NCBI GenBank assembly: GCA_011944185.1
Contig: GCA_011944185.1_3921.2
From: a phage
Direction: 5' to 3' (one strand)
Length of the DNA: 27,455 nt
The notes under the pieces were generated by a model. That model saw only the letters and a program-made list of their open reading frames with translations, had not been told where the DNA came from and did no database searches. Below, piece by piece: positions 7,139 to 25,458 of this stretch (positions are counted from its first letter, which is position 1; each line of letters starts with the position of its first letter). The translations under genes and the position numbers were made by a program.

Positions 7139-7159
7139 TAACTATTGAGAGAGAATAAA

Positions 7160-7408
7160 ATGTTTAACAAAAGTAAAGCTGTGAGTCATGTAGCAAAAGT
7201 TGACAGCAAGATTGAAGAACTTGAGCGCATCCTTGCAAATGCCAGAGAGTCAATAATTAAAGAAGTTGAAGCTGTTGAATCACAAATGCAGCACCTAATG
7301 CTTAAACGCCAAGAGCTACGTGAGCATCTAGAATATACTGAAACACGAGAGCTAAAAGTTAACAGATATTTTAAGGAGTCCGAATGTTTAACTCAAGAGA
7401 ATCAGTAA
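7160..7408 (+). CDS. hypothetical small protein (coiled coil)
   Basis: The ORF track starts at a TTG at 7145; I prefer the ATG at 7160 preceded by GAGAGAG. Product is helical and charged. Confidence 0.45.
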   Translation: MFNKSKAVSHVAKVDSKIEELERILANARESIIKEVEAVESQMQHLMLKRQELREHLEYTETRELKVNRYFKESECLTQENQ

Positions 7409-12924: not shown

Positions 12925-15069
12925 ATGAACAAAGTACAGATTATTAAAAAGAATGGCTCACTTGAAGAACCTGATATCAAAAAAGTTTTAGCGGCAGTAA
13001 CAAAGTCAGCTAACAGGGTTGGATATAAAGAACTGCCACCAGATGTTACCCAAGCTCTTGAGTCAGCATTCATGAGGATTTTGGTAAAGTCCACTAAGCA
13101 GAATAATTTGCTTATCTCGGTAAATGATATTCACAGTATTGTTGAAGGTGCTTTGGCAGAGGTCAATCACGAGATTTATGAGTCTTACTCAACATACAGA
13201 AATTACCGTAAAGAGGTTGCTCAAAATTGGGACGAACTCTACCAGAAGACTAAAGATACACTCTTCTTAGGTGACCGTGAAAATGCTAACTTTGACAGCA
13301 GTTTAATTTCTACGAAAGGTTCAATTATCCGTGGTTACCTGACTAAAGAAATCTTTAAACAGTATCATCTAACACCAGAGGAACTTGAAGCCATTGAGAA
13401 AGGCTTTATCTATATCCACGATTTGAGAGACCTGATTTTTGGTGGTATTAACTGTTGCCTGTTTGACATTGGTAAAGTACTAAAAGGTGGCTTTGAAATG
13501 TCCGGCATTGAGTACTGTGAACCTAAATCTGTACTGTCAGCGTTGCAGGTTATTGGTGACGTAGTACTTTCAGCAACTGCACAGCAATTTGGTGGTTTTA
13601 CTTTAGCAGAGATTGATAAGGTACTTGTACCGTATGCTAAGAAGTCTCTACGCTATCATGCTGAGAAAGCATCATCTTATGGTATTCCTAAAGAGCATTA
13701 CCACAATTATGTAATGGAGCAGTTACAAATTGAACTGACTCAAGGTTTTCAGTCACTTGAGATGAAACTAAATACCGTACCTTGTAGCCGTGGTGATTTT
13801 GCATTCACAACTTTAACATTTGGTTTACTTGACTCAGATATGTCTAATGAGGATAATCGACTACAATACATGATTGCAAGTACTCTCCTAGATGTTCGTA
13901 TGAATGGACAAGGCAAGAGTAAAAAGCCTGTTGTATTCCCTAAACTGGTTTATATTTATGACCAGAAGAGACATGATGAAAATATCTGTCAAGGTCACCT
14001 GTACAGTAAAGCTATTGAGTGTTGCTCTAAAGCAATGTACCCAGATTTCTTAAGTGTGTCTGGTCATGGTGCTGTAGCAGAGGCTTTTGAGCGTTCTGGT
14101 AAGGTAATTTCACCGATGGGTTGCAGAGCCTTTTTATCTCCATATCTTAATGAGGGTGGAGAAGAGTTCTACGTTGGTCGTGCTAACATTGGTGCTGTAT
14201 CTTTGAACTTACCAATGATTTACCAGTATTCTAAAGAGAATGGTTTAGATTTCTGGAAAGAGCTTGATAAGTACCTAGAGATGATTCGCAACTTCCACAA
14301 GAAACGCTACGAAATGATTGCTAATATGCCAGCAAGTTCTAACCCTCTTGCGTTCACACAAGGTGGTCTGTACAAAGGAACTAAGAAACCTACTGACAAG
14401 GTTGGTTGGGATATTGTGAAGTCCTTCACAGCTTCTTTTGGTGTTACTGCGCTTGATGAGTTGTCTGTTCTTGCTGAAGGTAAACGACTTCATGAAGTTG
14501 GAAGCTATAGTTTTGCATACGATGTTCTGGCATACATCAACATGAAAACTGAAGAGTTTAAAAATGAAGATGGCTTCTTATATGCCGTCTATGGTACTCC
14601 AGCAGAATCACTTTGTGGAACTCAGCTAAAACAGTTCAGAGATATGTTTGGCGTTATCAAAGGTGTTTCTGATAAGGAATACTTTACAAACAGTTTCCAT
14701 ATGAATGTTGCAGCAGACATCTCACCATTTAAGAAGCAGGACTTAGAAGAGCCATTCTTCCATATCTGTAGAGGTGGGAGAATCCAGTATGTCAGGGTAG
14801 CTAACCCAGAAAACTTAACAGCACTTAAAAGCTGTATTACAAGAGGGATGTTGAAAGGTTTCTATCAGGGGCTTAACTTTGACTTAGCAATCTGTGAACA
14901 TTGTGGTAACAGACCAAAGGCTGATGTTGAAGAATGTGAAGTTTGTCACTCACATGATATCTCTGTGATTAACAGGGTGTGTGGGTATCTTGGATGGACT
15001 AAGATTAAAGGTGAATCCCGAATGAACGATGCAAAAATCGCTGAGATTCGTGACAGAGTTTCTATGTAA
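12925..15069 (+). CDS. nrdD: anaerobic ribonucleoside-triphosphate reductase (class III)
   Basis: N-terminal ATP-cone-like segment (IIKKNGSLEEPDIKKV); C-terminal Cys4 zinc ribbon (CEHCGN...CEVCHSHD) followed by the glycyl-radical motif RVCGYLG; 714 aa. Confidence 0.9.
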   Translation: MNKVQIIKKNGSLEEPDIKKVLAAVTKSANRVGYKELPPDVTQALESAFMRILVKSTKQNNLLISVNDIHSIVEGALAEVNHEIYESYSTYRNYRKEVAQNWDELYQKTKDTLFLGDRENANFDSSLISTKGSIIRGYLTKEIFKQYHLTPEELEAIEKGFIYIHDLRDLIFGGINCCLFDIGKVLKGGFEMSGIEYCEPKSVLSALQVIGDVVLSATAQQFGGFTLAEIDKVLVPYAKKSLRYHAEKASSYGIPKEHYHNYVMEQLQIELTQGFQSLEMKLNTVPCSRGDFAFTTLTFGLLDSDMSNEDNRLQYMIASTLLDVRMNGQGKSKKPVVFPKLVYIYDQKRHDENICQGHLYSKAIECCSKAMYPDFLSVSGHGAVAEAFERSGKVISPMGCRAFLSPYLNEGGEEFYVGRANIGAVSLNLPMIYQYSKENGLDFWKELDKYLEMIRNFHKKRYEMIANMPASSNPLAFTQGGLYKGTKKPTDKVGWDIVKSFTASFGVTALDELSVLAEGKRLHEVGSYSFAYDVLAYINMKTEEFKNEDGFLYAVYGTPAESLCGTQLKQFRDMFGVIKGVSDKEYFTNSFHMNVAADISPFKKQDLEEPFFHICRGGRIQYVRVANPENLTALKSCITRGMLKGFYQGLNFDLAICEHCGNRPKADVEECEVCHSHDISVINRVCGYLGWTKIKGESRMNDAKIAEIRDRVSM

Positions 15070-15424: not shown

Positions 15425-15816
15425 TTAAGTTGAACAAAAAACAGTTAGAGTGGATTAAAGATTATGCCTCAGAGTGTGGCTCTTGCGAAAAGAATCACGT
15501 AAGATATTCAACATTCCATACGACCTTCACATTGTACATCAGCGACAACGTTCTAAGTGATTCCGTAGAAGATGGTGTAGCGTTACCTAATGAATTGCTT
15601 GACAAATTAGCTGTAGTCTCTGGAACTTGGTCTGAAGAAGACGGTCATGAATTATCTAACGATGTTGTCTTCTACACTCTTGAAAACATTATGAATCCAG
15701 AGTACATTATACTAATGACTTGTGCACAAGATTGTGTGCCATTACAAAACTTCATTAAAGAACACTGCGAAGAATTTATTACTAAACAGGTTCCTTGTCA
15801 GGTGGTGTTTGAATGA
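15421..15816 (+). CDS. hypothetical protein
   Basis: 131-aa ORF; AAGGTGAAA RBS; ATGA overlap with the upstream gene. No motif recognised. Confidence 0.5.
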   Translation: MIKLNKKQLEWIKDYASECGSCEKNHVRYSTFHTTFTLYISDNVLSDSVEDGVALPNELLDKLAVVSGTWSEEDGHELSNDVVFYTLENIMNPEYIILMTCAQDCVPLQNFIKEHCEEFITKQVPCQVVFE

Positions 15817-16112
15817 GTAAAACAATTCGAAGAAAAGGTTTAAAGAACGTTCATGGACTCTATGAGTGGAGAAATGAGGTACGTAACAGAGAAAATGCTT
15901 CAGATGTCTACTTCCATTCTGATATGATGTCCAGAAAAGGTGGCTCTTACGACTTCACAAGCCAGCCTTGTAGAGAGATTAAGAAGGCCACTAAACGTCT
16001 TACAAGAACACAAATAAGGCAGCTTTCTAAGACATCCTTCTTAGATGAAGATTTTGATATTGATAGCAAGTCTCCAAAGAAAGCCGCTAAGAACACTTAT
16101 ATGTATTGGTGA
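15813..16112 (+). CDS. hypothetical basic protein
   Basis: 99-aa ORF; start overlaps the upstream stop; Lys/Arg-rich. Confidence 0.45.
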   Translation: MSKTIRRKGLKNVHGLYEWRNEVRNRENASDVYFHSDMMSRKGGSYDFTSQPCREIKKATKRLTRTQIRQLSKTSFLDEDFDIDSKSPKKAAKNTYMYW

Positions 16113-16121
16113 GGTAACTAG

Positions 16122-16607
16122 ATGAATTACATAGAGATTCGACCATTTGACACAGCTAATGGTGAAGGGGTTCGTGTAAGCCTCTTCGTAGCTGGTTGTA
16201 AGCATCACTGTGAAGGTTGCTTTAATAAGGAATCTTGGAAGTTTAATGCTGGTAAAGAGTTCACTTATGCAAACCTTTATGGCATCATTAAGTTAATGGA
16301 TGATAATGCCATCAGTGGGCTGTCAATACTTGGTGGAGAACCTCTGGATGATAGAAACATTCAAGAGGTTACTAACATATGCAAACGTATTAAAACCGTT
16401 TACCCAGAAAAATCTATCTGGCTCTGGACAGGTTTTCAGTTACATGAAAAAATTCACCTTGATGTGATGAAATATGTTGACGTGGTGATTGATGGTAAGT
16501 ATGATTCATCTAAACCAACAGTTAAACCGTATCGTGGTTCAGATAACCAAAACCTCTGGAGAAAAGAGTACGGATGGCAAGGTGATTGTCAGTGGAGAGC
16601 AGAGTGA
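16122..16607 (+). CDS. nrdG: anaerobic ribonucleotide reductase activating protein (radical SAM)
   Basis: CKHHCEGC = CxxxCxxC radical-SAM cluster motif near the N-terminus; 161 aa (T4 NrdG is about 156 aa); sits close to nrdD. Confidence 0.8.
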   Translation: MNYIEIRPFDTANGEGVRVSLFVAGCKHHCEGCFNKESWKFNAGKEFTYANLYGIIKLMDDNAISGLSILGGEPLDDRNIQEVTNICKRIKTVYPEKSIWLWTGFQLHEKIHLDVMKYVDVVIDGKYDSSKPTVKPYRGSDNQNLWRKEYGWQGDCQWRAE

Positions 16608-16689
16608 TTATTCTGGCAAATGGACTAAGGTATAACTCCAATTGGTATCACTGAAGAAGAACTTCATAAGTTCTGTATTAAACTTTAAT

Positions 16690-16713
16690 GAGAGAGAGAG
16701 AGAGAGAGAGAGA
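16690..16713. repeat. (GA)12 dinucleotide microsatellite immediately upstream of a start codon
   Basis: Perfect GAGAGAGAGAGAGAGAGAGAGAGA at 16690-16713; the ATG at 16720 follows 6 nt later. Confidence 0.95.
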
Positions 16714-16719
16714 CTAAAA

Positions 16720-16986
16720 ATGGGAATTTTAGGTAATATGAAAGCTGGATTCTTGAAGGCACTGGCAAAAGCAGCAGCAATTGTTGCTATGACTGGAAAG
16801 CAGGTCGGTGTGGATGCTTCAGCGGTTGCACAGGTTCTTACAAGCCAAATTGAACAGCAGCCTTACATCTATGTAGGCCGTGGCAAAGGTGGTAAGAAAC
16901 AAGCCCACCGTCCGTCTGGTGCAGCAGCTATTAAACGAGCAGCTAAGAAAGCTCGTAACCGTAAACGTAATAAGAAGGCTAGATAA
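16720..16986 (+). CDS. small protein with hydrophobic N-terminus and polybasic C-terminal tail
   Basis: 88 aa from the first ATG; the ORF track starts at a TTG at 16642 and reads through the GA repeat as (ER)n. N-terminal GFLKALAKAAAIVAMTG; C-terminal GGKKQAHRPSGAAAIKRAAKKARNRKRNKKAR. Confidence 0.45.
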   Translation: MGILGNMKAGFLKALAKAAAIVAMTGKQVGVDASAVAQVLTSQIEQQPYIYVGRGKGGKKQAHRPSGAAAIKRAAKKARNRKRNKKAR

Positions 16987-16988
16987 CC

Positions 16989-17300
16989 ATGAGCAAAATC
17001 TATAACACTCGTAAATTACAGATTGCAATCCTGTGCCAGTTTATGGCTGATAAGCACAACTCACACTATTGTGGTACAGGTTTCCTTATGCAAGGTCGTG
17101 GCTACATTAGCTTCAAAGAAGCTGTGAAGATGTACAATGAGCACCCTGAAGATGACAAAGAGTTGAAACAACTGAAGCTTACTTATGACAAGAAGCGTAA
17201 GAAAATTGTATGCTTGAACAACCTTATCAAGCAAACTGAAAACGTTTATGATGCAATTGGTGAAGAGGGTTTCTTAAAAGTCTTGAAAATAGCTCAGTAA
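16989..17300 (+). CDS. hypothetical protein
   Basis: 103-aa ORF followed by a perfect terminator. No motif recognised. Confidence 0.45.
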   Translation: MSKIYNTRKLQIAILCQFMADKHNSHYCGTGFLMQGRGYISFKEAVKMYNEHPEDDKELKQLKLTYDKKRKKIVCLNNLIKQTENVYDAIGEEGFLKVLKIAQ

Positions 17301-17312
17301 ATGTATATGATT

Positions 17313-17341
17313 AGGGAACTGTAAAGGTTCCCTTTTTATTT
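17313..17341 (+). terminator. Rho-independent terminator
   Basis: Perfect AGGGAAC / GTTCCCT stem with 7-nt loop, followed by TTTTTATTTT. Confidence 0.65.
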
Positions 17342-17351
17342 TGGAGATAAT

Positions 17352-17867
17352 ATGTATCTGTCAAATCTGAAACGTTCTGCTGCAATGTCAGTGTTAAGAC
17401 TCAGTTTTGAGGAACGTCAAGAGTTCATTGACTCCCACCAATACGACCCTTCCAACTCCAATCACATGATTCTCTGGAATCGTGAGAGTACTCGTGAAAG
17501 AGCATTATTTCGATATTACCCACACTACACCATAGACAACCTGTATGAATGTTTTGTTGTGAAGAACACCATTACAGTACTCAATAAACTTTGCAGATAC
17601 ACAGGCAGTCAATCCTTCACATTAGGCCACCACAATCCTGTTACAAAAGGTGGTGAACATCACTGTGCAAACTGGTTTATTCAGACTAAAGCTGATAACC
17701 AGAAGCAAGGAGATAGTCTTTTAAGTACCCCTAAGATGACCTATGAAGAGCAAGAGAGATATATCAAAAATAATATGCCAGATGTGCTTGACAACAACTA
17801 TACAGATTTGGCAATATCTCTCCTGTTGAAGTTCGAGATAGTTTATAGGGCAACTTACAATGGCTAA
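17352..17867 (+). CDS. putative HNH (His-Me finger) endonuclease
   Basis: LCRYTGSQSFTLGHHNPVTKGGEHHCANWFIQTKADNQKQGD fits the HNH pattern C..C...HH.P...GG...N...N.K; GGAG RBS. Confidence 0.5.
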   Translation: MYLSNLKRSAAMSVLRLSFEERQEFIDSHQYDPSNSNHMILWNRESTRERALFRYYPHYTIDNLYECFVVKNTITVLNKLCRYTGSQSFTLGHHNPVTKGGEHHCANWFIQTKADNQKQGDSLLSTPKMTYEEQERYIKNNMPDVLDNNYTDLAISLLLKFEIVYRATYNG

Positions 17868-18138
17868 AGAAAAGTGGGAGATTTTACCATTAGTCAGTGA
17901 AGGTGGTAATGGTTGTGAAATGTACATGATACGTGGTCATGTTCCAGAGCCAATTGCACTTGAGATGGTAAACAACTTTACAGATGGTTCTTACAAAGAC
18001 TTAGGCGAACCAACTGTCAAGCAACAATGGGTTAAACCTGTACCAGACAGCACAGGTAACTGTAGTGTACTTTATCACGTTGTAGACCCTGCAAAATGCA
18101 AATCTGCAATGGCAGTAACAAACATAACTTTTGATTGA
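17860..18138 (+). CDS. hypothetical protein
   Basis: 92-aa ORF overlapping the upstream stop. No motif recognised. Confidence 0.45.
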   Translation: MAKEKWEILPLVSEGGNGCEMYMIRGHVPEPIALEMVNNFTDGSYKDLGEPTVKQQWVKPVPDSTGNCSVLYHVVDPAKCKSAMAVTNITFD

Positions 18139-18149
18139 GAGAGAAAACT

Positions 18150-19031
18150 ATGAAAACATCTATACGTGTTACAGTTCATTCACCAACTAAAGGAACTCAT
18201 GAAGAAGAGTTTAACATCATCCAATTTCCTTCTGGTGAGATTGGTGGACACTTTTCGCCAGAGTTTGTTGATTTCACTGCTTATGCAGCATCATCCATCA
18301 ACAATGTGATTATGATTGTAAAAGGTTATGATAAGGACACATTGTTTGCTGTGGCACTTGCTAAAGAAGCAATTGATGATTTAATTCCTCACGATTATGC
18401 TTTAAAGACTGTCATCTTTTACTACTTACCAAATGCACGATATGACCGTCACATGTTTAAAGGCGACGCAGCAGCTTTAAAGGTTTTTGCTAAACAGATT
18501 AATGCAATGGGGTTTGGCGCAGTCTGTGCAGTTGACCCTCACAGCTATGTACCAGATAACCTGTTTAACTGCTTCCAGAGTATTCCTCAAAAGGAAATTG
18601 CAGTCCACTATGCAAATGACCCACTGATTGATTACTTAGTAGCCCCAGATGCAGGTGCTGCTAAGAAGATTGCAGAGACTGCTAAAGAGGTGGATAAACC
18701 ATACATCACAATGTCTAAGGTGCGTAACCTTAAGACTGGTGAAATTACTGGTATGCGAATCCTTGATGATGTTGATTTGACAGATAAAACCGTTATGATT
18801 CTGGATGATATCTGTGATGGTGGTCGAACCTTCATAGAAGCAGCGAAACATCTTCGTGAAGCAGGTGCAAAACGTGTGGAACTTTATGTAACACATGGTA
18901 TCTTCTCTAAAGATGTTGAAAACCTTCTTGACAATGGTATCGACCATATTTACACTACAAACTCTTTAGGCGAAGCTAAAGACCGTGGCTTAACACATTA
19001 TGGTCAAGTTACTGTAGCGAACCTTGATTAG
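18150..19031 (+). CDS. ribose-phosphate pyrophosphokinase (Prs)-family protein; PRPP synthetase or ADPR-pyrophosphate synthetase-like
   Basis: C-terminal half aligns with E. coli Prs as I recall it: VAPDAGAAKKIAE...VMILDDICDGGRTFIEAAKHLREAGAKRVELYVTHGIFS vs VSPDIGGVVRARA...[38 protein letters not shown]; DPHS resembles the Prs DLHA motif. The PRTase loop reads DGGRT where I recall DTGGT in Prs. The ORF track starts at a TTG at 18135; I prefer the ATG at 18150 after GAGAGAG. Confidence 0.75.
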   Translation: MKTSIRVTVHSPTKGTHEEEFNIIQFPSGEIGGHFSPEFVDFTAYAASSINNVIMIVKGYDKDTLFAVALAKEAIDDLIPHDYALKTVIFYYLPNARYDRHMFKGDAAALKVFAKQINAMGFGAVCAVDPHSYVPDNLFNCFQSIPQKEIAVHYANDPLIDYLVAPDAGAAKKIAETAKEVDKPYITMSKVRNLKTGEITGMRILDDVDLTDKTVMILDDICDGGRTFIEAAKHLREAGAKRVELYVTHGIFSKDVENLLDNGIDHIYTTNSLGEAKDRGLTHYGQVTVANLD

Positions 19032-19039
19032 GTAACAGT

Positions 19040-19531
19040 ATGAATAAGGGTTATTTTGAAAAATACCTAATATATGAACCAGATACAGGTTTATTAATTT
19101 GGAGAGTAACCCTTTGCAGTACCGCTATTGCTGGTAATGTGGCTGGCACAAAGTCTAAGAAGGGTTATATCCAAGTCCAGATAAATAAGAAGAGGTACTA
19201 TGCACATAATATTGCATGGATTATGTCTGGAGGTGAGATACCAAGTGGATATGAGATAGACCACATAGACCTTGATAAAGCTAATAATAAGTTGGAGAAT
19301 TTAAGACTTAGCACAAAGTCACAAAATCAGAGGAATAGGGGTATACACAAGAATAATAAAACTGGTGTGAAGGGTGTAAGTTTTTGTAAACAAACAGGTC
19401 TTTACAAAGCAAGAGTCATGCTTTACCATAAAGAATACTTTTGTGGAAGATTTAAAACGGTAGAAGAAGCAAAAGAAGCTGTAATTAAAAAGCGAATAGA
19501 ACTTCATGGTGAGTTTGCAAGACATAACTAA
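19040..19531 (+). CDS. free-standing HNH homing endonuclease with AP2-type DNA-binding domain
   Basis: YAHNIAWIMSGGEIPSGYEIDHIDLDKANNKLENLRL matches the HNH_3 pattern; C-terminal KTGVKGVSFCKQTGLYKARV...FKTVEEAKEA resembles an AP2 domain. Inserted between two functionally linked genes (Prs-like and Nampt-like). Confidence 0.75.
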   Translation: MNKGYFEKYLIYEPDTGLLIWRVTLCSTAIAGNVAGTKSKKGYIQVQINKKRYYAHNIAWIMSGGEIPSGYEIDHIDLDKANNKLENLRLSTKSQNQRNRGIHKNNKTGVKGVSFCKQTGLYKARVMLYHKEYFCGRFKTVEEAKEAVIKKRIELHGEFARHN

Positions 19532-19545
19532 GAGAGAGATAAAAT

Positions 19546-21327
19546 ATGAGTAAGTCACTTTACGCAGTACCAGCAGGTCTTAATGCAGATGCTTACAAGG
19601 CATCACATATATATCAGTATCCAGATGCTACGCAATATCTTATGTTAAACCTGACACCACGTAGTGATAAATGGTTTAACAGCCCTTTAGCAATTGACGG
19701 TGTAGTGGCTTTTGGTATTCAACGTTTTGTTAAAGATTACTTGATAGACCACTGGAACGCCACCTTCTTTGAACGTGACAAAAAAGAAGCAATTGACGAA
19801 ATCTTAGAAGTCATGAACGGTGTTCTGGGTAAAGATGCTATCGGTAGAGAACATTGGGAAGCACTTCACGACTTAGGCTATCTACCAGTTGAAGTATACG
19901 CTGTAGAAGAAGGCACAGTTGTTCCTATGCGTGTACCAATGATTGTCTTCCAGAACACTGTTTCAGGTTTCCATTGGGTAGCTGGGTATCTGGAAGATGC
20001 TTTCTCTGCTGAGATTTGGAAGGCTTGTACCATTGCAACTATTGCATTGCACTACAAACGTATCTGTAAGAAGTGGTCTGACCTTACTTGTGACAACGAC
20101 TTGCATTTGCCTTATCAGTGCCATGACTTTGCTATGCGTGGTATGTCCGGCTTTACTGATGACGCATTTAACGCTGTAGGCCACTTAACCAGCTTTAAAG
20201 GAACTGATAGCTTCCCTGCTGTATATACAGCTAAACGCATCTATGGACAGTCCTACCCAATCTCTGATATTGGTAGCTCTGTACCAGCCACTGAACACTC
20301 TGTGATGTGTGCAAACATTGCTTGGGAAGGTGGTAATGAGTTGGTTGAAGAAGAAAGACGCTTTAAAGGTGAGTTGCAAACCTTCCGTCGCTTCTTAACA
20401 GAAACTTATCCAACTGGTATTGCAAGTGTTGTTTCAGACACTTATAACTTCTGGAGAACTGTGTCAGAAATCTTACCAGCACTCCGTAAAGAAATTATGG
20501 AACGTGATGGCAAACTGGTAATTCGTCCTGACTCTGGAGACCCTGTACACATTGTCACAGGTTATAAAGCAATCCACTTAGAGTGTGCTAAAAAGGCTTA
20601 TTATGAGCACCTAAGCAATCTGGAAGCCAGTGACACAATGCTGAATGCTGTTCTGAACATGAAGCTTGAAAACATCAGCTATGGTATTGCTGGATGGCTA
20701 CTGTCAGAAGGCTACGAAATGGTTGTTGACAGAGAAGACTTTGAAGTTGCTGATACAGTGATGTTGAAGAACGCTTATATGGTTGGTTCTGCAAACGTTG
20801 TAACACGCCCTGTAGCAGAGATTGATGGAGCTATTAAGACCTTGTATAACATCTTTGGAGGAACTATTAACTCTAAAGGTTTTAAGGTACTGGATGAGCA
20901 CATTGGCCTTATCTATGGCGACTCTATCACGTTGGAACGTGCAAACGAAATCCTGAAGCGTCTGTATGAAATGGGGTTTGCAAGCTCTAACGTGGTGTTT
21001 GGTGTAGGCTCTTACACTTACCAGTACATGACTCGTGACACCTTTGCATTTGCTGTCAAAGCAACTCTTGCAAGCATTGGTGGCAAAGAGATTATGCTTG
21101 CAAAAGACCCTAAAACAGATAGTGGTGTTAAGAAATCTGCCTTTGGTGGTGTAGCACCTATGTGGGATGGTGAGAATTTGAAAGCTGTAGATGGCTATGG
21201 ATTCCAGAGCTTTGCAGATGCACTTGAACATCCAGCTTGTGCTTTACGTTTAGTCTTTAGCGACTCTGAGCAGTACGGTTACACAACTCTTGGTGATATT
21301 CGAAATAATATTGACAATCAGCTTTAA
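19546..21327 (+). CDS. nicotinamide phosphoribosyltransferase (Nampt/NadV)-family protein; possibly nicotinamide ADPR-transferase-like
   Basis: N-terminal LNADAYKASHIYQYPD fits the (D)xYKxxH signature of the Nampt/NAPRTase family; 593 aa; AGAGAGAG RBS; followed by a terminator. Catalytic residues not individually verified. Confidence 0.7.
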   Translation: MSKSLYAVPAGLNADAYKASHIYQYPDATQYLMLNLTPRSDKWFNSPLAIDGVVAFGIQRFVKDYLIDHWNATFFERDKKEAIDEILEVMNGVLGKDAIGREHWEALHDLGYLPVEVYAVEEGTVVPMRVPMIVFQNTVSGFHWVAGYLEDAFSAEIWKACTIATIALHYKRICKKWSDLTCDNDLHLPYQCHDFAMRGMSGFTDDAFNAVGHLTSFKGTDSFPAVYTAKRIYGQSYPISDIGSSVPATEHSVMCANIAWEGGNELVEEERRFKGELQTFRRFLTETYPTGIASVVSDTYNFWRTVSEILPALRKEIMERDGKLVIRPDSGDPVHIVTGYKAIHLECAKKAYYEHLSNLEASDTMLNAVLNMKLENISYGIAGWLLSEGYEMVVDREDFEVADTVMLKNAYMVGSANVVTRPVAEIDGAIKTLYNIFGGTINSKGFKVLDEHIGLIYGDSITLERANEILKRLYEMGFASSNVVFGVGSYTYQYMTRDTFAFAVKATLASIGGKEIMLAKDPKTDSGVKKSAFGGVAPMWDGENLKAVDGYGFQSFADALEHPACALRLVFSDSEQYGYTTLGDIRNNIDNQL

Positions 21328-24304: not shown

Positions 24305-24348
24305 AGCCTCACAAATTGATTGATTAACTAACAAGAGAGAGTAATAAG

Positions 24349-25458
24349 ATGACTACTAAAACTAAAGCACAGATTGACGCAGAAATTTACAAACTGGTTA
24401 AAGAAGGTAAGCTGACCAAAACAGCTATTGCACAGAAATTTAACACTTCAACCCGTTCAGTTGGTCGTGCTGTAGAGCGTCATGAAGCAACCCTAAAAGG
24501 GAATAAAAAGGCAACTTCTGCACCAGCTACGAAGACTTTGAAACAAGTTGCTAAGACTTTTAAAAAGAAAGCTGGCAAACCAGTTGAAAAGGTCGTTAAA
24601 GAGACTGTACAGAAAGCTCCAGTAAATAAACTGCACGAAGCTATGCAGAAAGATGACAAAATTGAGTACATGATTACTGGTGACTCTGTAATTATGACTT
24701 ATGGTTCAGAATCTGAAATTGTTGAGTCTACTCATCCAAACTATCAAGAGATTGTAGTTCATGTTGTGAAAGGTGAGTTCAAGAAAGCATTTGAACTGAT
24801 GAACATCCGTAAGTCTATCGAAAACTTCACTCAGGGTGCTATTACAATCAAAGGTGACAAGCTATTCTACGGTGCTGTTGAGATGCGTTCTACTCTGGTT
24901 GACCGTATTCTCCACATGATGAAGACTGGTGATAAAGGTTTTGAACGACTTGTAATGTTCTTCGAAAAACTGATGGAAAACCCATCTAAAGATTCTGTAG
25001 AACAACTTTGGGGATTTGTATCTCACCTTGATGTTGAAATTGATGAAGAAGGCTACATCATTGGTTGGAAGAAAGTCTCTACTCGTGAAGGCAAGCTGGT
25101 TGACTCTCACACCTACAAAGTGCCTAATGATTTGGGTAACATTGTAGAAATGCCACGTTGGATGGTTGATAATAACCGTAACGTAACTTGCTCTCAAGGT
25201 CTTCATGTTGGTGCTTGGGATTATGTTCGTTGCTTCTCAGGTGATACAATCCTGAAGGTTCGCGTACATCCACGAGATGTTGTATCTGTTCCAACTGATT
25301 ACAACGATATGAAGATGCGTTCCTCTCGTTATGAAGTTGCAGCAATCGTTGATAATCAACGTAAAGTGCTGGAAGCATGGGACGGTAAGACTGAAGCTTT
25401 GCATGTCATCGTTGGCACTGCTGGTGAACTCATCTCTCAACGTAAACGTGAAATCTAA
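24349..25458 (+). CDS. rIIB: rIIB-like protein
   Basis: Segments ITIKGDKLFYGAVEMRSTLVDRILHMM, FFEKLMENPSKDSVEQLW and VRVHPRDVVSVPTDYNDMKMRSSRYEV match my recollection of T4 rIIB (VRIEGGSLFYQNIELRSGLVDRILDSM; VKVHPRDVVSIPIDYNDAKMRTCQYEV); immediately downstream of rIIA; AGAGAGAG RBS. Confidence 0.75.
   Translation: MTTKTKAQIDAEIYKLVKEGKLTKTAIAQKFNTSTRSVGRAVERHEATLKGNKKATSAPATKTLKQVAKTFKKKAGKPVEKVVKETVQKAPVNKLHEAMQKDDKIEYMITGDSVIMTYGSESEIVESTHPNYQEIVVHVVKGEFKKAFELMNIRKSIENFTQGAITIKGDKLFYGAVEMRSTLVDRILHMMKTGDKGFERLVMFFEKLMENPSKDSVEQLWGFVSHLDVEIDEEGYIIGWKKVSTREGKLVDSHTYKVPNDLGNIVEMPRWMVDNNRNVTCSQGLHVGAWDYVRCFSGDTILKVRVHPRDVVSVPTDYNDMKMRSSRYEVAAIVDNQRKVLEAWDGKTEALHVIVGTAGELISQRKREI

Follow-up and report, generated by a model that had tools for sequence, protein, structure and literature searches.

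A previously undescribed GA microsatellite in a Shine-Dalgarno-type ribosome-binding site of Felixounavirus phages

A stretch of phage DNA of 27,455 nt (the window; contig GCA_011944185.1_3921.2 of GenBank assembly GCA_011944185.1) carries a perfect (GA)12 repeat just upstream of a small gene, and this repeat is a previously undescribed phage microsatellite. Comparison with related genomes points to a conserved (GA)4 ribosome-binding site (RBS) that is present here as an expanded allele and that differs in length among close relatives. From models, the tract may also tune translation of the gene behind it, an effect that is probably small. As a whole, the explanation that we favour is a slippage-expanded (GA)4 RBS microsatellite that brings a modest, graded translational gain and whose long alleles are short-lived; we give it a probability of about 0.5.

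The tract and its genomic setting

The tract occupies positions 16690-16713 on the plus strand. Both direct reading of the sequence and Tandem Repeats Finder return a period of 2, 12.0 copies and 100% matches, and the 24-nt repeat ends 6 nt before the ATG at 16720, exactly as an earlier note on this DNA had described from the letters alone. It is separated from that start codon by the spacer CTAAAA (16714-16719), and the ATG opens a reading frame (16720-16986) of 88 aa plus stop. The strings that bracket the tract on its 5' and 3' sides are TTTAAT...CTAAAAATG. No other dinucleotide run in the 27.5-kb window exceeds four units, and a first-order Markov model of the window predicts 2e-9 tracts of this kind.

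A sequencing or assembly artefact is a most improbable source of the tract. A separate Logan assembly of SRR9069990 is 100% identical to the window over 1,067 nt, and because it carries the same (GA)12, an error of a single assembler is unlikely. Expanded alleles also occur in unrelated GenBank records and in IMG/VR contigs, which come from different laboratories. Stutter is nevertheless common at dinucleotide repeats, and the exact repeat number (n) of any single record may be one unit off.

The window is a segment of a Felixounavirus genome (FelixO1-like, Ounavirinae). Its gene content includes nrdA/B, nrdD/G, prs, nadV and rIIA/B, and the closest GenBank records are approximately 95-97% identical to it over 25 kb. 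Felixounavirus sequence matching the region at approximately 87-96% identity is also found in GU169904.1 (Staphylococcus phage SA1) and MG065668.1 (Campylobacter phage A126), which are probably contaminated or mislabelled records.

Within the window, the tract lies between nrdG (16122-16607) and the 88-aa gene. The interval that precedes it (16608-16688, plus strand) is the remnant of an upstream gene of approximately 91 aa that was broken by a 157-nt deletion, as seen in annotations and in an alignment in which Meda and garuso have the intact gene and KhF2 and heid the deletion. The gene, which overlaps the end of nrdG, is intact in Meda (Meda_011), garuso (garuso_48), P219 and others. The deletion, which breaks the frame, is common to the window, KhF2 and heid, and the first ATG of the gene now reads ACG. 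Only the conserved 3' end remains (16629-16688, with the stop codon TAA at 16686-16688), abutting the tract, and the leader of the 88-aa gene now consists of the conserved last 20 codons and the stop of the former gene. This leader includes a 7-bp hairpin, AGAACTT-CAT-AAGTTCT (16658-16674, plus strand), in the minimum free energy (MFE) fold, 5' of the tract. Its stem is largely kept in relatives, and where the upstream gene is intact the hairpin falls within the coding 3' end of that gene.

Searches for other signals gave little. There was no Rfam match at E<=1 in 15800-17600. A role as promoter element was rejected, as a sigma-70 scan found no promoter that uses the tract or the adjacent TTTAAT. 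The sole terminator found in the promoter/terminator scan lies downstream of the tract, at 17313-17333. Beside this terminator, an 11-bp 'attP' recombination site is annotated in KhF2 and KhF3 (in KhF2, positions 1738-1748 of locus L001, equivalent to approximately 17340 of the window); in these virulent phages the annotation looks doubtful.

Other parts of the neighbourhood also vary. The nrdD gene is a single ORF of 714 aa in the window (12925-15069) and is annotated as two CDS, approximately 400-830 nt apart, in P219, SPJ41 and phiWec177 (loci L022, L024 and L027). Small ORFs lie in the gap in P219 and phiWec177, and the split suggests an intron or the insertion of a homing endonuclease in these three phages. 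An ORF of 163 aa (19040-19531) separates prs from nadV in the window and some relatives; the records of ECML-1 and phiWec177 label it an HNH endonuclease. In its place, other relatives carry no more than a GC-rich hairpin (GGGCTTnnAAGCCC) and a TTTT after it, and the GA-type RBS of nadV is present either way.

Origin from a conserved ribosome-binding site

Evidence on the origin of the tract comes from the orthologous position in relatives. In dozens of Felixounavirus genomes this position reads TTTAAT-GAGAGAGA-CTAAAA-ATG, that is, (GA)4 with identical flanks. FelixO1, wV8 and typing phage 1 have a divergent allele, whose product is only approximately 50% identical in its N-terminal half; this allele likewise has GAGAGAGA, a 6-nt spacer and ATG. 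The spacer is kept in relatives, with the minor variants CTAAA and TTAAAA. In the window, the corresponding start-proximal register of the tract is 16706-16713 (plus strand); it ends 6 nt before the ATG in all relatives too, and it corresponds to the ancestral Shine-Dalgarno-type site.

Supporting this, the same motif recurs in front of other genes. Outside the tract, GAGAGAG occurs at six further sites in the window, all on the plus strand, and five of the six lie 6-7 nt before start codons. Counting the overlapping matches within the tract as well, the window has 15 occurrences, where shuffled sequence would give 4.1 +/- 2.1. The five plus-strand sites are the (GA)4 tracts of the gene starting at 424 (410-417), of the gene starting at 7160 (7147-7154) and of the ribose-phosphate pyrophosphokinase gene prs, which starts at 18150 (18137-18144, located by the GAGAGAG scan), together with the (AG)4 tracts of nadV, which starts at 19546 (19531-19538), and of rIIB, which starts at 24349 (24334-24341). 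Those before 7160, 18150, 19546 and 24349 had been pointed out in the earlier note and are all present as described; the one before 424 brings their number to five. The orthologs have (GA)4 between identical flanks and at an identical 6-nt distance from the start, and five other genes of the window share the motif; the tract is therefore the phage's own RBS motif in expanded form, which is what the earlier note had proposed. (GA)4 is thus a Shine-Dalgarno-type motif that recurs and is conserved in the genus, and the window tract is an allele of it that has grown by 16 nt.

In sequence and position, the motif has the properties of a Shine-Dalgarno (SD) site. Its complementarity to the 3' end of 16S rRNA gives a predicted duplex of -5.6 kcal/mol for every n of 4 or more, and its distance to the start codon is conserved within the usual 5-9 nt, with a spacer of 6 nt in nearly all relatives and of 5 nt in a few. 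The anti-SD duplexes at the five other GA-type RBSs are predicted at -5.1 to -5.5 kcal/mol, which lies within this phage's normal range, and those of the window's other genes at approximately -3.5 to -8.7 kcal/mol, calculated with the E. coli anti-SD. In the Salmonella phage OPT-SAL01, which has the gene allele here called B, the tract reads GAGAGAAGGA in place of GAGAGAGA (locus L036, approximately 346-355), a 2-nt change that produces a more canonical AAGGA Shine-Dalgarno core.

Variation in repeat length

Repeat numbers were obtained by direct reading of 40 loci. Seven lengths other than that of the window were found, with unchanged flanks: n=4 in the majority of loci, n=5 in DE17, fjerdesal, SSBS18 and three IMG/VR contigs (L006, L007 and L012), n=6 in JLBYU32, n=7 in SPJ41, n=8 in two IMG/VR contigs (L005 and L010), n=11 in P219 and n=15 in ESCO50, where the tract precedes the other gene allele. 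The record spans in two BLAST surveys place n>4 in 8 of approximately 85 distinct allele-A GenBank records inspected. For allele B, a BLAST span survey gave one record with n>4 among the 60 matches listed. (GA)4 accounts for approximately 90% of the inspected allele-A GenBank records and for almost all allele-B records. Two allele-B records with odd spans, RPN213 and SP116, were considered as expansions and rejected, as they have unrelated indels and n=4; ESCO50 is the sole true expansion on this allele. A metagenome scan found four loci, all with n=4.

Close pairs of genomes indicate how fast the tract changes. P219 (n=11) and SPJ41 (n=7) differ by no mismatch and no gap in the two 1000-nt flanks. 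Between the window and its closest contig, L005, the only gap in 12,257 aligned nt is the tract itself, and a single mismatch occurs in the 1,000 nt to its right. In a tree built from the flanks, (GA)5 appears in at least four clades, and the expanded alleles are scattered as singletons over unrelated lineages with no host pattern. Together, these observations support independent length changes in several lineages. The tract thus resembles a contingency locus in that a simple sequence repeat (SSR) differs in length between close genomes. The earlier note had called the repeat prone to slipped-strand length change and had named an invariant length across relatives as the outcome that would speak against it. 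The relatives range from n=4 to n=15, with independent changes on identical or near-identical flanks, in line with the former and contrary to the latter.

Is such change a general property of (GA)4 tracts in these phages? The other GA-type RBSs of the window served as controls, and across panels of 7-19 loci none of the tracts before 424, 7160, 18150 and 24349 had changed by a repeat unit. Length was the same in 7/7 relatives for the tract before 424 and in 9/9 for that before 7160, and the rIIB tract was invariant in 8/8 loci. Among 19 loci, the prs tract had substitutions and one 1-nt shift (in L008) and no change of repeat units, and a span survey of this tract found no +/-2 changes among high-identity matches. 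For rIIB, 54 of the 57 full-length record spans equalled the query. Candidates for a +2 change numbered at most one in the prs and rIIB span surveys (57-60 rows each) versus 8 of 60 at the 16690 tract. The nadV tract is mildly length-polymorphic, with (GA)5 in IMG/VR contigs L006 and L007, (AG)6 in L013 and four units elsewhere. These controls show that fast repeat-unit change is specific to the 16690 site and that the other (GA)4 RBS tracts are almost invariant.

The 88-aa protein

The gene behind the tract (16720-16986, plus strand) was found by tblastn in 256/256 Felixounavirus-type records that match the region. Its product matches phrog_4425 (E=5.8e-48), which PHROG labels as 'unknown function'. 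No Pfam or NCBIfam match was found, and the best hit among PDB sequences (E=2.4) is not significant. The homologs are all unnamed or hypothetical (31/31) and come from Felixounavirus-like contigs.

The protein combines a variable, amphipathic N-terminal half with a conserved, basic C-terminal module. The module, VGRGKGGKKQAHRxxGAAAIKRAAKKARNRKRNKKAK, is almost invariant, with the core VGxGKGGKK...GAAAIKRAAKKA.NR invariant in the alignment, whereas at least four divergent versions of the N-terminal half occur. Of the description given in the earlier note, the Lys/Arg-rich tail holds, whereas the 'hydrophobic N-terminus' is better described as an Ala-rich amphipathic helix with several Lys residues (predicted helix 3-28). 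An AF2 model (mean pLDDT 65) has three helices, of which only the basic C-terminal one (68-87) is modelled with confidence. A nucleic-acid-binding role is plausible. The GRGKGGKK motif resembles the N-terminal tail of histone H4, a similarity that we take to be probably coincidental.

The Erwinia phage phiEa21-4 (Kolesnikvirus) has neither the 88-aa protein nor a (GA)4 tract in its 84.6 kb. In the genomes compared, the protein and the (GA)4 tracts are thus both traits of the Felixounavirus lineage, which one outgroup cannot link to each other. The annotated length of the gene is 88, 94, 98 or 110 aa across records; JLBYU32, for instance, is annotated with 110 aa from a start further upstream. 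All of this variation arises in gene calling: where n brings an upstream ATG or TTG into frame, the caller lengthens the gene through the GA tract.

Possible effect on translation and alternative explanations

Under the favoured explanation, replication slippage, the mechanism that we infer, would expand the conserved (GA)4 Shine-Dalgarno-type RBS of a gene that belongs to the Felixounavirus core. In this one place, the RBS has become a true microsatellite, in which GA units are gained and lost much faster than the flanks accumulate substitutions. Added units lengthen the tract only on the side away from the start codon, which preserves the register and the 6-nt spacing to the AUG and keeps the gene translatable. 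The tract lies outside the ORF and the SD-AUG spacing is the same at every n, so an on/off phase switch of the contingency-locus type is ruled out. A graded 'volume control' may instead be possible: a longer tract would offer more anti-SD registers and a longer unstructured purine landing pad (a standby site), with modestly higher 30S recruitment as the predicted outcome. Long alleles such as (GA)12 would probably be short-lived and have a small fitness effect, because (GA)4 is by far the commonest state.

Thermodynamic modelling predicts at most a change of this kind. In the model, the minimum anti-SD duplex energy, like the SD-AUG spacing, is unchanged for all n of at least 4, and the ensemble energy of anti-SD binding is -4.2 kcal/mol at n=4 and -5.9 kcal/mol at n=12. 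The probability that the start-proximal 8 nt are unpaired rises from 0.54 (n=4) to 0.82 (n=12). Of 200 shuffles of the 131-nt region, 199 fold more stably than the region itself. Its MFE structure leaves the tract unpaired and has a weak A-U hairpin that includes the start codon (16713-16734, plus strand). Of the two features that define a standby site, a single-stranded segment adjoining the RBS is thus present in prediction only, with an unpaired probability that grows with n, and sequestration of the RBS is limited to the weak A-U hairpin over the AUG. From these models, and by analogy with systems discussed below, we favour a modest and graded increase in initiation at (GA)12. The direction of the effect, like its size, is drawn from such reasoning, and the upstream SD-like registers could equally act as decoys that lower initiation at the AUG, or have no influence on it at all.

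Several other explanations were weighed against this one. The tract may have the same origin in slippage and yet be functionally silent in its extra units: only the start-proximal register would matter, the dosage of the gene would be uncritical, and the additional units would be tolerated noise that drifts and collapses back. This is a possible, if somewhat doubtful, account. The constancy of the minimum anti-SD duplex energy and of the spacing from n=4 upwards is what it expects, as is the flat tail of lengths (5, 6, 7, 8, 11, 12, 15), which length-dependent neutral slippage predicts. The strong predominance of (GA)4, with long alleles as rare singletons over unrelated lineages and hosts, is also in its favour, and from the comparison of genomes near-neutral slippage with transient long alleles fits this pattern at least as well as adaptive tuning does. 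However, no expansion is seen at three other intergenic (GA)4 RBS tracts that have the same length and composition, and therefore either those tracts are constrained or the 16690 site is favoured. Large expansions have, moreover, arisen independently at least three or four times at one gene, on two gene alleles. At the opposite end, the (GA)n RBS could be a selected 'rheostat', in which length heterogeneity within a lysate diversifies the dose of the protein; the protein might in turn bind the (GA)4 motif of prs, nadV, rIIB and other early genes, with one tract resetting a small translational regulon. We regard this as unlikely, and if true, it would be the first RBS-located dinucleotide contingency locus in a virus. 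Another regulatory proposal makes the (GA)4 motif an operator, to which a phage translational regulator would bind; the arginine-rich 88-aa protein might be that regulator, and expansion of its own RBS would reset autoregulation. The points that suggest it are circumstantial, namely the precise (GA)4 motif common to six genes in 27 kb, the conserved basic helix of arginine-rich type and the joint absence of protein and tract from phiEa21-4. Given that this co-occurrence rests on a single outgroup genome and that an SD role accounts for the position of the motif with no extra factor, the operator is highly improbable.

Other explanations place the function of the tract elsewhere. The ATG at 16688 overlaps the upstream TAA stop (TAATG), a classic coupling arrangement, and n sets its frame relative to the main start. 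At n mod 3 = 2, the ATG would open an in-frame (Arg-Glu)n N-terminal extension; at n mod 3 = 1, as in (GA)4, a uORF overlapping the main start. At n mod 3 = 0, as in the window, frame analysis for n=3-16 gives a candidate 9-codon uORF (16688-16717, plus strand; MRERERERD and stop) that ends 2 nt before the ATG at 16720 and would allow termination-reinitiation. Gene callers do start at this ATG when n=5 (fjerdesal, 94 aa) or n=11 (P219, 98 aa), and also in P0002, where a 5-nt spacer restores the frame (MRETKMGIL). Such frame selection is quite unlikely all the same, as the ATG has no preceding SD, the allele-B leader (ATTGAGAG...) has no such ATG, and n has no frame preference, with 4 and 7, 5, 8 and 11, and 6, 12 and 15 all seen. 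In the window, the 157-nt deletion has destroyed the upstream gene, whose frame closes at 16626, and therefore no terminating ribosomes reach the ATG. A related candidate, a repeat that is itself coding, was rejected: only at n = 0 mod 3 does the upstream frame read through the tract, the TTG at 16642 has no SD, and the frame is broken in n=4 relatives, so the tract is non-coding. A role at the DNA level, as H-DNA (triplex), as a pause site for replication or transcription, or as a site of recombination or protein binding, is very unlikely. The 24-bp (GA)12 is a perfect homopurine-homopyrimidine mirror repeat of the approximately 20 bp or more from which H-DNA can form, a potential read from sequence only, and its neighbourhood is mosaic, with the 157-nt indel, two gene alleles and nearby HNH genes. 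The conserved ancestral state is, however, 8 bp, too short for such structures, and at six genes the motif keeps a set distance from the start codon (6-nt spacer), always on the coding strand, a position that indicates a role at the RNA level.

Comparison with known systems

Hypermutable repeats are a classic bacterial means of varying gene expression. In phages, to our knowledge, they have been claimed only recently and only as homopolymers that frameshift ORFs. The Felixounavirus lineage of coliphages and Salmonella phages is widely isolated and is used in biocontrol and therapy. This virulent phage lineage carries a dinucleotide microsatellite inside an RBS that has expanded independently several times. 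The tract could serve as a practical marker for strain typing, and it is also a source of inconsistent gene calls. Should its effect on expression prove negligible, it would still illustrate, in clean form, site-specific slippage during phage replication.

Among purine-rich short repeats, the (GAA)n tract of Mycoplasma gallisepticum vlhA lies upstream of the promoter and requires exactly 12 units, and the (CT/GA)n repeats of Helicobacter pylori lie inside coding regions and act by frameshift. Both control expression by repeat number, and neither is an RBS. The '(AG)n vampire pathogen' paper makes no link between AG repeats and SD sites, and no description of the present locus was found in the literature on Felixounavirus repeats or RBSs and on phage microsatellites.

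Parallels exist in repeats that lie outside the gene. In Moraxella catarrhalis, the SSRs G(n) of uspA1 and AGAT(n) of uspA2 are located 29-132 bp upstream and act on the mRNA level in a graded manner, from high through mid to low (PMC7302503). Like these, the GA tract is upstream of the ORF and not inside it, and its number varies between strains; the graded outcome is theirs and, for the phage, a model-based prediction. Unlike uspA1 and uspA2, the tract here is the RBS itself, is a GA dinucleotide and belongs to a virulent phage.

Phage contingency loci have been described in T2 and T4 by Gomez, Barrick & Waters 2025 (bioRxiv 10.1101/2025.10.21.683753) as homopolymers of at least 6 bp, mostly in ORFs, which by frameshift turn genes off and on again. 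Dinucleotide repeats, RBSs and Felixounavirus go unmentioned in the text of that paper. The present locus shares with them a hypermutable SSR, its occurrence in virulent coliphage genomes and the attribution to slippage. It differs in being a dinucleotide, in being intergenic and in that it cannot frameshift the main ORF, and in these respects it falls outside their class.

For the predicted effect on initiation, the nearest analogue is experimental. Sterk, Romilly & Wagner 2018 (PMC5934652) found that unstructured CA/AU repeat tails before an RBS raise translation according to their length, with a peak at 16-18 nt. The phage tract is similarly a single-stranded dinucleotide repeat immediately 5' of an RBS, and its natural expansion adds 16 nt. 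By contrast, those tails were synthetic CA/AU sequences in front of the strongly structured MS2 coat RBS, in a described series that did not include GA, whereas the GA units here resemble the SD itself and the hairpin at the start codon is weak. Across relatives, nature has supplied an allelic series from n=4 to n=15 on identical flanks, which suits tests of how the length of SD-like repeats and unstructured leaders affects initiation in vivo.
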